From Escherichia phage F2, in the sequence record NC_054913.1: 64,000 nucleotides of DNA; one strand, given 5' to 3'. Position 1 is the first letter of the stretch; the number at the start of each line of letters is the position of its first letter. Below, one piece after another: positions 20,565 through 62,503 of this stretch. Under the pieces are notes generated by a model that worked only from the letters and a program-made list of their open reading frames with translations, made no database searches and was not told the DNA's origin. Both the position numbers and the translations under genes were made by a program.

Positions 20565-21377
20565 TTAGAAACGAGATGCGACTTTCGCATATAAACTTAC
20601 ATTAGAATTCTGTTCTACCTGAGTTGTGGTAGTGTCAACTGCTTCGGCAACAAAATTAAGACCGGCAGCGTCATTGTCAACTGTATTTATACCTTCGGTA
20701 ATAGCGGCTTCTTCTTTAGTAGAACCTTTAACCATTTCTACAATAGCAGTTAACTTAGTACCAAATGCGTCAGAATAATCCATACCTTCAACCAGGCCAA
20801 TAACTTTTTCTTTCTGAGATTCAGTCAGGTCTTTTACGCTTTCATTAATAGCGGTTTCACGCTGAACGTAATTGATATATGCATCACGTTTGGTAACTTC
20901 TTCGAACAAACGAGCGGTTTCTTCTTTATGTTCGGCCAGCTCTTCTTCCATTTCTGCTACAACATCTACAGATTCTTCTGGAACAACAACGTTATGTTCA
21001 ACAAACAGTTCTTTCAGACCACCAAGCATGGATTCGAACAAATCAGCTTTAATGCCTTTATCAACTGCGATTTGGTTTTCTGCGAGCCATTCTTTTGCAA
21101 GATGGTCTAGGAATTTAGAAGCTTGTTCAGCCAATTTTTTATCAGCTTTCTCTTCAGCATCTTCTTTAGCCTTTTCAACTTCTTCTTCGGCTTTTTCGGC
21201 GATGGCTTTGATATGAGATTCAGCCAGTTTGACTGCTTCCTGCTTAACGGTGGCTTCGAATACAGTGCTGAAATTAGCTTTAACGTCCGGAGACAGTTCT
21301 ACTGATTCGAAAACACTATTAAGAGCAACTGAAGTCTCGATGTTTTGAGCTTCTTTCAAAAGTTGTTCTTTGATCAT
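20565..21377 (-). CDS. 22: gp22 prohead core scaffold protein, 270 aa
   Basis: Acidic coiled-coil scaffold; length and synteny. Confidence 0.9.
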   Translation of the reverse strand: MIKEQLLKEAQNIETSVALNSVFESVELSPDVKANFSTVFEATVKQEAVKLAESHIKAIAEKAEEEVEKAKEDAEEKADKKLAEQASKFLDHLAKEWLAENQIAVDKGIKADLFESMLGGLKELFVEHNVVVPEESVDVVAEMEEELAEHKEETARLFEEVTKRDAYINYVQRETAINESVKDLTESQKEKVIGLVEGMDYSDAFGTKLTAIVEMVKGSTKEEAAITEGINTVDNDAAGLNFVAEAVDTTTTQVEQNSNVSLYAKVASRF

Positions 21378-21407: not shown

Positions 21408-21415
21408 TATTTATA
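21408..21415 (-). promoter_or_regulatory. late promoter (TATAAATA) for gene 22
   Basis: reverse complement TATAAATA about 30 nt upstream of the gene 22 start, overlapping the gene 21 stop. Confidence 0.65.
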
Positions 21416-22052
21416 ATGCTTTTAAACTCTCTGTGAGAGCTTTAAATGCTTCATCAGCACTGTTTTTGGTGATTTCCACCGAATTTTCTGATTCTGATAT
21501 TTGTTTAGGAGTAACCCAAGCATCTGGAGCAGAAGGTCCCCATACGGCATCTACGCCGACGGTTAATTTAAATCCTTCGTTCACGATACGGTACCCTTTA
21601 TTGGTGTCGGTTAAAGAACCAAGACCACGAGAGGAAACACCTGGAATCCAACCGGCGCGTATATTAGCAGCTAATTTATCGCCGGGACCATGGTCGCCTT
21701 CAATAATTCTAGCACGTCCATATACATCGTTTCCTTTCCACCACATATCTTCAATAATGATAGCGGCTTGCATAGGGTCAACATTTGCACGAGGTGGATG
21801 GTTTAATTCTCCAAGGGCTTGTTTGGTTTCGACTTGTTCTTTAATATAGTCACTTACTGCTTTTTCCAAAACACGTTTAGGATATAAACGTTTATTTCGG
21901 TTAACAACCTCTGCCTGAAGAAAAATACCTTCTATATAAAGCCCTGGTTTTAAGCCAGAATCTTTTCCATCATGAGATTCCAACATTGGAACGCCATCAA
22001 TAATCTCACCGGGTTGACCCCAAGTTTCAATAAGTAACTCGGGTTTATTCAT
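21411..22052 (-). CDS. 21: gp21 prohead core protease, 213 aa
   Basis: Length and synteny. Confidence 0.9.
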   Translation of the reverse strand: MNKPELLIETWGQPGEIIDGVPMLESHDGKDSGLKPGLYIEGIFLQAEVVNRNKRLYPKRVLEKAVSDYIKEQVETKQALGELNHPPRANVDPMQAAIIIEDMWWKGNDVYGRARIIEGDHGPGDKLAANIRAGWIPGVSSRGLGSLTDTNKGYRIVNEGFKLTVGVDAVWGPSAPDAWVTPKQISESENSVEITKNSADEAFKALTESLKAL

Positions 22053-52616: not shown

Positions 52617-52904
52617 ATGAAAACCTATAAAGAATTTATATCACCTGTTGCTAACGTTTCTACTCTGACCGAAGCAACCCTTACTTCCGAAGTTATTAAA
52701 GCAAATAAAGGACGTGAGGGTAAACCAATGATTAGTCTGGTTGACGGCGAAGAAGTAAAAGGTACTGTTTACTTAGGGGATGGATGGTCTGCTAAGAAAG
52801 ATGGCGCTACTATTGTTATCTCTCCGGCTGAAGAGACTGCACTGTTTAAAGCTAAGCATATTTCTGTAGCTCAGCTTAAAATTATTGCAAAAACTCTTCT
52901 GTAA
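52617..52904 (+). CDS. internal protein with capsid-targeting leader (IpI-like), 95 aa
   Basis: N-terminus MKTYKEFIS resembles the T4 internal-protein capsid-targeting sequence MKTYQEFIAE; position after 57B as for T4 ipI. Confidence 0.7.
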   Translation: MKTYKEFISPVANVSTLTEATLTSEVIKANKGREGKPMISLVDGEEVKGTVYLGDGWSAKKDGATIVISPAEETALFKAKHISVAQLKIIAKTLL

Positions 52905-60062: not shown

Positions 60063-60593
<531 letters not shown>

Positions 60594-60597
60594 AGTT

Positions 60598-60637
60598 GTT
60601 TACTTTCTCCTAGAACTGTGATAGTATATTCACAGTT
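60598..60637 (+). promoter_or_regulatory. early promoter with inverted repeat (PeSL-like)
   Basis: gtttac at 60598-60603, 18 nt, tagtat at 60622-60627; arms aactgtga at 60614-60621 and tcacagtt at 60630-60637. Confidence 0.6.
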
Positions 60638-60670
60638 ACTAATTAAAATATTTACATTTAAAGGAAACAT

Positions 60671-61144
60671 ATGAAAACATATCAAGAATTTATTACTGAA
60701 GCAGCTATTAATTCTCAAATTATTGCTGAATCTTTTACTGATCTTTTGAAATTTAAAAAAGGACAGAAAATTACTGCTGTATTAGATGATGGTACAGAAG
60801 TTGAGATGGATGTACAGGGATATAATTATGCAGTAGATGGAAAACTGTATAATAAATCTCATGCTAAATTTGATTCATTTGATGATTTTGTTAATACAGT
60901 TGAAGATGAAAAAACTCGTCGATCCATTGCAACTGGTGATGCTAAGGTTCTTATGGCGCATGGGCATGAACGTATTCGCGCTAAACAGAATAAAATGGGT
61001 GAAGATAATTTCGCATTAGTTGGTTATCAATCTGGTAAACAAACTTATGGTTATCAGCGTACTGCTACCATGTATAATAAAAATGGTAAAATCGCTTTCG
61101 TGAATAGTAAAGGTTCTATTCAGTACGTTAAATCGTTCAAATAA
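60671..61144 (+). CDS. internal protein with capsid-targeting leader (IpII/IpIII-class variant), 157 aa
   Basis: N-terminus MKTYQEFITEA matches the T4 capsid-targeting sequence; position next to e as for T4 ipIII/ipII; length differs from T4 IpII (100 aa) and IpIII (194 aa). Confidence 0.7.
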   Translation: MKTYQEFITEAAINSQIIAESFTDLLKFKKGQKITAVLDDGTEVEMDVQGYNYAVDGKLYNKSHAKFDSFDDFVNTVEDEKTRRSIATGDAKVLMAHGHERIRAKQNKMGEDNFALVGYQSGKQTYGYQRTATMYNKNGKIAFVNSKGSIQYVKSFK

Positions 61145-61201
61145 CATGGGAACAACCTGGACCTCATGATTCTGTGAGGGATTCCCGCCAACCTGTAATA
61201 A

Positions 61202-61223
61202 GGTCGAGCCCAAGTGCGGTAAT
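61202..61223 (+). pseudogene. tRNA 3'-end remnant (T arm plus acceptor) related to tRNA-Asn
   Basis: ggtcgagcccaagtgcggtaat versus ggttcgagtccaagtgcgccagtaat at 54561-54586; no matching 5' half upstream. Confidence 0.45.
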
Positions 61224-61285
61224 GGGTAAATACAGAAATGGACAATTCATGCGCCATGGAATGGCCCAAATTTAGAGAGAATAAA

Positions 61286-61828
61286 ATGAGAACATTTTTA
61301 ACTGGTCCTTATCTATCCCTGATGAATGCTTTTACACACCATTCTGATGCTAGAGTAGAAGAAATTTGTAATAGTGGATTTTATGTACCTGATTCGTCGC
61401 ATTTATTTAAAGAATATTGTACACTTCGTTTAGATGGTGGCAGACAATCTGGTAAATCAACTGCAGTAACTAATTTTGCCGCTAATTGGTTGTATGATGG
61501 TGGAACAGTTATTGTTCTTTCTAATACTTCAGCTTACGCTAAAATTTCTGCGGGCCGCATTAAAAAAGAATTTTCTCGTTATTCTAGCGATGATATTCGA
61601 TTCCGTTTATTTACTGATTCTGTCCGTAGTTTTGTTGGTAATAGAGGTAGCAAGTTCAGAGGTTTATCGCTTTCTCGAATTTTGTATATAATCGATGAGC
61701 CTGTTAAATCTCCTGATATGGATAAAATTTACGATATTCATATTGAAACTGTGCACCACTGTTGCAATAGTAAATGCTGCATTGGTGGTATTACTCGTCC
61801 TCAATTTTTTGTGATTGGAATGCAATGA
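61286..61828 (+). CDS. P-loop NTPase-like hypothetical protein with C-terminal Cys cluster, 180 aa
   Basis: Walker A GGRQSGKST, Walker B-like ILYIIDEP, HHCCNSKCC; start set at the ATG at 61286. Confidence 0.5.
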   Translation: MRTFLTGPYLSLMNAFTHHSDARVEEICNSGFYVPDSSHLFKEYCTLRLDGGRQSGKSTAVTNFAANWLYDGGTVIVLSNTSAYAKISAGRIKKEFSRYSSDDIRFRLFTDSVRSFVGNRGSKFRGLSLSRILYIIDEPVKSPDMDKIYDIHIETVHHCCNSKCCIGGITRPQFFVIGMQ

Positions 61829-62140: not shown

Positions 62141-62503
62141 ATGAAAGCATATCAAATTCTTGAAGGTGCACATAAAGGCACTATTTATTTTGAAGACGGT
62201 ATTCAAGCCCGGATTATTGTCTCTAAGACTTTTAAAGAAGACGATATTGTAGACCCGGAAATTTTCTACGGTTTGAATGCTCGTGAAATTGAAATTGAAC
62301 ATCAACCTAAAGTTAAAATTGAAGGTGGTCAACACCTGAACGTTAACGTTCTGCGTCGTGAAACTCTGGAAGATGCAGTTAAGCATCCTGAAAAATATCC
62401 GCAGCTGACCATCCGTGTATCTGGTTATGCAGTTCGCTTTAACTCTCTGACTCCGGAACAGCAGCGCGACGTTATCGCTCGCACCTTTACTGAGAGTCTA
62501 TAA
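62141..62503 (+). CDS. autonomous glycyl-radical cofactor (GrcA/YfiD-like), 120 aa
   Basis: C-terminal 60 aa carry the glycyl-radical motif RVSGYAV and end in TFTESL, matching E. coli GrcA as I recall it; T4 is reported to encode such a homolog (Y06I). Confidence 0.8.

Follow-up and report, generated by a model that had tools for sequence, protein, structure and literature searches.

Ip4 of Escherichia phage F2, a known and conserved T-even internal protein in a variable gene array beside the lysozyme gene

Background

Three internal proteins of T-even phages are known as inhibitors of modification-dependent restriction. Silas et al. 2025 (PMC12373910), who credit the ip genes to Repoila et al. 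1994, report that Ip1, Ip2 and Ip3 are each active against a single GmrSD type IV enzyme, without cross-protection, and they suggest that every protein encoded at the two ip loci has a GmrSD variant as its target. In that study 15 GmrSD groups were synthesised and five further active ones were found; when ten ip genes, including ip4-10, were assayed against the five newly active groups the authors "identified no new inhibitory interactions", and instances of apparent inhibition were irreproducible (PMC12373910). The "ip4" construct of that work is equated here with Ip4 by name. Since the three internal proteins of known function disarm modification-dependent restriction, these phages can be said to spend head space on pre-made countermeasures that are active before phage gene expression.

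We report on a stretch of 64,000 nucleotides from Escherichia phage F2 (sequence record NC_054913.1; hereafter the window), in which an earlier note, made from the letters of the sequence, had singled out a 157-aa ORF next to the lysozyme gene e as a variant internal protein and candidate injected anti-restriction effector. Judged by its sequence, this ORF is ip4 (ipIV), one of the known T-even internal-protein genes, which has long had a name, is annotated in many genomes and was part of a 2025 functional panel; the outcome of the genome scan is the correct identification of a known gene, not a discovery. Our additions are modest, namely a pattern of conservation and synteny in which Ip4 stands out as the constant first gene of an array that otherwise varies, and a confident predicted model of Ip4 that has no close structural relative.

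Results

Identification of ip4

60671 to 61144, plus strand: ip4 (ipIV) coding sequence for a 157-aa precursor, assigned by DUF7412, PHROG 3155 and identity to the T2 and K3 proteins.

The ORF is real: it starts with ATG 77 nt after the e stop codon, has an AAGGA ribosome-binding site 6 nt 5' of the ATG, and encodes 157 aa with the N-terminus MKTYQEFITEAAINSQ (MKTYQEFITEA), as first read. Its product matches the Pfam family DUF7412 (PF24183) over residues 1-157 of the 158-position model (E 5.7e-96, 319 bits, the Pfam gathering threshold being 27 bits) and, over its full length, PHROG 3155 "internal virion protein" (E 6e-102). In tblastn searches of phage records it was 100% identical to the proteins of T2, RB18 and RB33, and it is 99% identical to UniProt Q38388 "Ip4 [Enterobacteria phage K3]", which is also its sole structural neighbour in BFVD. 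Some phage records label the gene "Ip4" or "ipIV: internal head protein 4", and a T2 preprint (10.1101/2025.10.21.683753) uses the name ipIV. Because the family match, the T2/K3 identity and the names in the records agree, we assign the gene to the known Ip4; being identical to the T2 protein, it is not the novel variant that it was first taken for.

The body is neither that of IpII nor that of IpIII, and here the earlier note was right. In BLASTP comparisons Ip4 and IpIII have nothing in common beyond the leader, and IpII gives a weak gapped alignment (31%, residues 1-70) that is carried mainly by the leader. Neither the IPI_T4 (PF11634) profile nor the IPI* fold matched Ip4. An exhaustive profile search of 1.84 billion proteins returned seven cluster representatives only, all Ip4-like or fragments, with no link to an enzyme family; NCBIfam gave sub-threshold noise only ("curli synthesis inhibitor", 17 bits, the cut-off being 300), and a sequence search of the PDB gave no meaningful match. 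The homology search that had been suggested as a check leads to an internal protein that is characterised in name only, since no published function for Ip4 was found in the literature searched.

Organization of the locus

60099 to 60593, plus strand: lysozyme gene e, the constant left neighbour of ip4, which aligns with T4 e.
61146 to 61285, plus strand: GC-rich element with its core at 61192-61222, the right boundary of the ip array, where T4 homology resumes.

The window is part of a T4-type genome whose orientation is reversed relative to the T4 reference record NC_000866, with the gene order 1, 57A, 57B, ipI, three tRNA genes, nudE, e, ip4, vs.8, vs.7, vs.6. In T4 the order at this locus is e-ipIII-ipII-denV-vs.8. 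On the left, near-identity to T4 e-ipIII extends from the 3' end of e across the intergenic DNA and through the first ~40 nt of ip4, and homology ends right after the leader; on the right, T4 homology resumes directly after the ip4 stop codon, at the GC-rich segment that follows the denV stop codon in T4. Given these sharp boundaries on both sides, the Ip4 body replaces the T4 block made up of the IpIII body, ipII and denV, and the ORF does lie, as had been proposed, in the polymorphic internal-protein locus adjoining e. Unlike in T4, denV (endonuclease V, a pyrimidine-dimer glycosylase) is absent from the e-to-vs.8 interval (60594-61290).

Two other parts of the window are recorded for completeness. 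The segment 54430-55383 (plus strand) has three tRNA genes only (Met/CAT, Asn/GTT and Arg/TCT); the T4 tRNA cluster comprises eight genes, and the tRNA set therefore appears reduced. At 62141-62503 (plus strand) lies a 120-aa ORF, the positional counterpart of T4 vs.6, which the T4 record gives as autonomous glycyl radical cofactor GrcA. The C-terminus of its product contains RVSGY, presumably the glycyl-radical motif.

The content of the array differs among related phages:

Klebsiella phage Shinkou, after e: ip4, denV, ipIII, a 101-aa leader-bearing gene, vs.8.
Klebsiella phage 15882-6-3, after e: ip4, vs.8.
Salmonella phage STML-198, after e: ip4, an 87-aa leader-bearing gene, vs.8.

In addition, 20 T4-like contigs from IMG/VR carry between one and three genes with the leader before the same downstream element, and the bodies of these genes are of at least eight kinds. 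The leader-bearing bodies in the e-to-element array range from 87 to 198 aa (L011-L032 from IMG/VR, and L005, L007 and L008), and across 20 related genomes the distance from the end of the last ip gene to the element core is 47-83 nt or 410-540 nt. Tequatrovirus, Jiaodavirus and Gelderlandvirus all retain the order e-ip4, and ip4, where present, comes first after e. It is the set of cassettes that is polymorphic, within a frame formed by the shared leader and the downstream element. In the surroundings of a distant metagenomic Ip4 relative (L004) we also observed a weak Pyr_excise-family gene just upstream.

Within ip4 there is one homopolymer tract:

60755 to 60760, plus strand: A6 tract inside ip4, read in the sequence.

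A 39-aa truncated variant in public data (P0020) diverges from Ip4 right after the A6 tract, and a Jiaodavirus-like genome (L022) has an Ip4 truncated to 35 aa. The idea that the tract is a contingency (phase-variable) device is unsupported, the frequency of slippage mutants being 0 for the repeat scored in T2 ipIV (10.1101/2025.10.21.683753).

The GC-rich element and vs.8

The core of the element is an invariant stretch of 31 nt at 61192-61222, CCTGTAATAAGGTCGAGCCCAAGTGCGGTAA, which occurs once in the window, with no occurrence expected by chance. Using blastn the GC-rich segment was detected in 1031 phage records; more than 1000 T4-like genomes conserve the element, upstream of vs.8, and in Gelderlandvirus, Jiaodavirus and Mosigvirus it falls in unannotated intergenic DNA. 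The core is also present within a tRNA gene cluster of Pseudomonas phage PsgM04F, and "Campylobacter phage C14" has it upstream of such a cluster. It occurs in or beside tRNA clusters of unrelated phages, i.e. PsgM04F, a Vequintavirinae record and three IMG/VR contigs of 46-47 kb, and in these contigs it is located 200-360 nt upstream of the tRNA genes and co-oriented with them.

RNAalifold and pair counting on 15 sequences gave an enclosing 3-bp stem with compensatory changes in all three of its pairs, together with two small hairpins; pairing was kept in 97% of cells compared with 11-50% in slid controls, and the covariation score was reached in none of 500 shuffles. Rfam 15 gave no match to the element even at E <= 10, and folding of the window element as a single sequence gave no unusual stability (z = +0.49). 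We consider the element a candidate for an undescribed structured RNA; it may resemble conserved stretches of twister-type ribozymes.

In T4 the element is annotated as an N-terminal extension of vs.8 (219 aa), with T4 positions 64830-64912 corresponding to 61174-61285 of the window. Here the frame of the extension starts with GTG and is closed by TAG (a 33-aa ORF, 61174-61275), and there is a 7-nt deletion before the ATG at 61286 (MRTFLTG...); the frame is likewise closed by a stop codon in STML-198. Translation of vs.8 therefore probably begins at the internal ATG, and the gene has probably been annotated too long in T4. That vs.8 has a fixed position just downstream of an RNA-like element may be meaningful. 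Inspection by eye shows a Walker A-like (GGRQSGKST) and a Walker B-like (ILYIIDEP) motif in the vs.8-like protein (61286-61828, plus strand), which had no match in NCBIfam.

Leader, expression and predicted processing

60065 to 60085, plus strand: two exact T4 late-promoter motifs (TATAAATA at 60065 and 60078) 5' of e, the probable source of late e-ip4 transcripts.
60671 to 60700, plus strand: capsid-targeting leader, residues 1-10 (MKTYQEFITE), ending I-T-E|A, assigned by similarity to T4 IpIII and IpII.
60701 to 60730, plus strand: residues 11-20, with a second candidate cleavage site I-A-E|S by the [LIM]-x-E motif.
60731 to 61141, plus strand: predicted mature body of ~137 aa, pI 9.3, with a beta-rich core and a three-helix insert.
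52617 to 52904, plus strand: ipI orthologue, the second leader-bearing gene, 95 aa (Pfam IPI_T4 over residues 20-95, E 1.3e-50; 88% to T4 IpI).
21411 to 22052, minus strand: prohead protease gp21, the expected leader-removing enzyme (Pfam Peptidase_S77, E 2.5e-107).
20565 to 21377, minus strand: scaffolding core protein gp22, the destination of leader-bearing proteins (Pfam T4_CASP, E 9.5e-90).

The capsid-targeting leader reported earlier is borne out. It is identical to the leader of T4 IpIII and IpII (MKTYQEFIAE) in nine of its ten residues, and the N-termini of Ip4 and T4 IpIII agree in 10 of 13; the leader DNA and the e-ip4 intergenic region are nearly identical to T4 e-ipIII. The T4 record X04567 marks residues -10 to -1 of IpIII and IpII as a leader that is removed. 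When all six frames of the 64 kb were scanned, a leader of the Ip4 type turned up in two ORFs only, ip4 and the ORF at 52617-52904. The latter, which follows 57B and had been noticed as a second leader-bearing gene, is confirmed as an internal protein and corresponds to IpI, the mature part of which begins at residue 20 after L-T-E, analogous to the second site of Ip4.

The [L/I]-x-E sequence motif of the prohead-protease type is present in Ip4 at residues 8-10 and 18-20. At residues 18-20 [LIM]-x-E is kept in all close homologues, and E10 and E20 are nearly invariant in the family, including relatives with 34-36% identity; the leaders of the distant relatives P0015 and P0016 read MNFEQFLNES and MNFKDFLNES. 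Residues 1-20 have low confidence in the AlphaFold2 model, and most of the body is above 90. Trimmed Ip4 is predicted to have about 137-147 residues and a pI of 9.1-9.3. Besides gp21 and gp22 the window encodes gp23, gp24 and the portal.

No terminator-like site was found between e and ip4, and ip4 of the Klebsiella and Salmonella relatives begins right at the e stop codon or overlaps it. A sigma-70 scan near ip4 gave promoter-like sites no more numerous than in shuffled sequence; a T4-early-like motif spotted by eye at ~60599-60627 is below the threshold of that scan.

The leader, the two protease-type sites and the genes for gp21 and gp22 support packaging and processing of Ip4. Since the searchable literature yielded no virion proteomics for Ip4, packaging is what we infer from these features. 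If Ip4 behaves like T4 IpI, IpII and IpIII, its precursor would be made late and co-transcribed with e, and the leader would carry it into the scaffolding core of the prohead, where gp21 would cleave it behind E10 and probably a second time behind E20; the ~15.5-kDa basic protein would then remain, in many copies, in the head with the DNA and be injected together with it.

Distribution and conservation

With tblastn Ip4 was found in 469 phage records, in 289 of them at an identity of at least 99%, and ~160 T4-like phages of Klebsiella, Salmonella and Serratia have relatives with 61-71% identity directly after e. The corresponding numbers of records are 289 for IpI, 261 for IpIII and 198 for IpII, and Ip4 is the most widespread of these four internal proteins in sequenced T-even-type phages.

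Between this phage and Jiaodavirus/Gelderlandvirus the identity is 69-71% for Ip4, 65-68% for lysozyme and 55% for NudE, and dN is 0.22-0.24 for ip4 compared with 0.30-0.36 for e, with dS saturated. The Ip4 family is under purifying selection, and as it is conserved as tightly as lysozyme it is not hypervariable; what varies at the locus, which the earlier note called hypervariable, is cassette occupancy. With at least 99% identity in 289 genomes, 69-71% across genera and dN below that of e, Ip4 does not look like a protein in an arms race. IpIII of Klebsiella phages, in contrast, is ~87% identical to that of T4, the backbone proteins (lysozyme and gp42) being at 65-71%, which suggests that ipIII recently spread horizontally between genera.

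Klebsiella phages with Ip4 also carry a homologue of gp42 (dCMP hydroxymethylase; 71% identity) beside glycosyltransferase genes, and among Klebsiella records gp42 is present in 136 and Ip4 in 135, a co-distribution that holds at the level of genus and host name rather than as a record-by-record intersection. Whether phages with Ip4 have a DNA-modification gene was a check that could have undermined the idea of an anti-type-IV function, and the idea was not undermined.

Predicted structure and conserved residues

The better AlphaFold2 model of Ip4 has a pLDDT of 83.8 and a pTM of 0.78. No close match to the whole-domain fold was found among solved structures, and the weak matches are to small nucleic-acid-binding barrels (Sm/Hfq, bL19, Tudor and CarD). 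Residues that are invariant also in the 34-36% relatives are G, K, N, Q, Y and T in loops (K58, N61, K62, N107, K108, Q120, Y128 and T131).

An enzymatic role is unlikely, as H64, H99, D47, E111 and D112 are lost in the 34-36% relatives; because histidines and acidic residues are not kept across the family, we regard Ip4 as a binding protein rather than an enzyme. Mature Ip4 is basic, with 22 K+R against 17 D+E and a pI of 9.3, and this charge rules out a DNA-mimic anti-restriction protein of the Ocr/ArdA type. No similarity in fold or sequence was found to IPI* or any other inhibitor.

Discussion

The proposal that ip4 encodes an anti-restriction effector has a precedent in Ip1, Ip2 and Ip3, which act against GmrSD, and is an argument by analogy; as ip4-10 gave no reproducible GmrSD inhibition (PMC12373910), such a role is plausible but unproven. 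In its specific form, the proposal is that Ip4 is injected and, by binding, blocks a host enzyme whose substrate is glycosylated hydroxymethylcytosine DNA, a reading to which we give somewhat less than an even chance. Ip4 would then act stoichiometrically in the cell before any phage gene is expressed, binding and blocking a host nuclease or glycosylase that attacks such DNA, and its target would lie outside the eight E. coli GmrSD groups already assayed. The analogy with Ip1, Ip2 and Ip3 and the co-distribution with gp42-bearing phages count for it, and the absence of Ip4 from T4 fits an accessory, host-directed function. Against it count the negative GmrSD panel, the restriction of T2, the missing signature of an arms race, the lack of likeness to an inhibitor, the inferred status of packaging, and also the contrast with IpIII, which is 87% identical between Klebsiella phages and T4. 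With respect to T2, the stock used in PMC12373910 was restricted by GmrSD from ECOR21 and from ECOR17, and since the T2 genome record carries Ip4 this stock should natively carry it.

The other readings differ in where they place Ip4 and what they let it bind. That its leader is vestigial and Ip4 an ordinary, unpackaged cytoplasmic phage protein is very improbable: the literature search yielded no direct packaging data, as this reading would have it, but the leader and both Glu sites are conserved even in P0015 and P0016, and the leader DNA closely matches that of T4 ipIII. Mullaney and Black reportedly found in 1996 that this 10-residue leader suffices to bring foreign proteins into T4 heads, which speaks against a vestigial leader as well. 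If Ip4 is packaged, it might still be mainly phage-intrinsic, i.e. a basic protein of the head interior that attaches to the packaged DNA, to the inner wall of the capsid or to both, with no specific host enzyme as target, and serves in charge neutralisation, packing, ejection or the coating of the first DNA to enter. We think this unlikely, yet several observations speak for it: the strong and vertical-looking conservation, as tight as that of lysozyme or tighter, in a fixed slot after e in three genera; the basic mature protein (pI 9.3) with invariant K, N, Q, Y, T and G in loops and no His or acidic catalytic set; the weak fold matches to small nucleic-acid-binding barrels; and the negative result for Ip4 in the GmrSD panel (PMC12373910). 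Moreover, Ip3 has been fitted to cryo-EM density on the major capsid protein, beside residual DNA, in emptied T4 heads (2026 preprint, 10.64898/2026.03.06.709160), and lysines of internal proteins contact DNA phosphates in T4 heads (PMC3012670). T4 is entirely without Ip4, however, so any structural role must be dispensable or replaceable, and the presence/absence polymorphism of ip4 and the truncated copies (P0020 and L022) point the same way; furthermore, Ip3 binds the capsid and yet inhibits GmrSD, and capsid or DNA contact is therefore compatible with a host target.

Slightly less likely again is that Ip4, once injected, acts on some host function outside modification-dependent restriction, for example another early-acting defence system or a conserved enterobacterial nuclease, protease or transcription component. 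Its conservation across phages of E. coli, Klebsiella, Salmonella and Serratia would fit a conserved target, unlike the hyper-diverse GmrSD, and both the negative GmrSD panel (PMC12373910) and a whole-domain fold with no close solved relative agree with it; but nothing positive points to a particular target, all three internal proteins of known function act on GmrSD (PMC12373910), and Ip4 tracks gp42-carrying phages, which indicates a function linked to DNA modification.

Ip4 is perhaps not a further GmrSD inhibitor. It could be an ancestral, vertically inherited first member of the array with a novel fold, binding either the incoming glycosylated DNA as a protective coat or a factor common to Escherichia, Klebsiella, Salmonella and Serratia; we offer this tentatively, as a possibility well short of even. 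If true, it would define a second functional class of injected T-even proteins. Identifying the target of Ip4 would show whether the rule "one internal protein, one GmrSD variant" is general, and would help to predict the host range of T2-type therapeutic phages.

Comparison with known systems

The Dar proteins of phage P1 (DarA, Hdf and DarB) are unrelated to Ip4, use another targeting mechanism and act against type I restriction. Their general strategy (PMC12810830) resembles that proposed for Ip4 in that protective proteins are packed in the head and delivered with the DNA.

Compared with Ip4 of K3 and T2, the present protein is the same (99-100% over the full length), and the T2 record has it in the same slot after e. 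There is no substantive difference between them; the surrounding genome is a mosaic, the segment 56000-64000 of the window having only 94-95% identity to the nearest records.

T4 IpI (IPI*), an injected inhibitor of the GmrSD of E. coli CT596, is like Ip4 in the type of leader, in having a protease site ~20 residues in, and in being a small basic mature protein from a non-essential accessory gene, and it is the model for the probable mode of Ip4. The two have no similarity in sequence or fold, and the ipI locus lies after 57B, not after e. T4 IpII and IpIII, which inhibit the GmrSD enzymes of ECOR21 and ECOR17, share with Ip4 the locus adjacent to e and near-identical leader DNA, and all three belong to the same cassette array, bounded by e and by the conserved element upstream of vs.8. 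Their bodies, in contrast, are not detectably related to that of Ip4, and of the three it is IpII and IpIII for which GmrSD targets have been shown; the divergence of Ip4 follows that of the phage backbone, while IpIII gives the impression of horizontal mobility. Ip4 is thus probably delivered like IpI, IpII and IpIII, and possibly serves a purpose like theirs.
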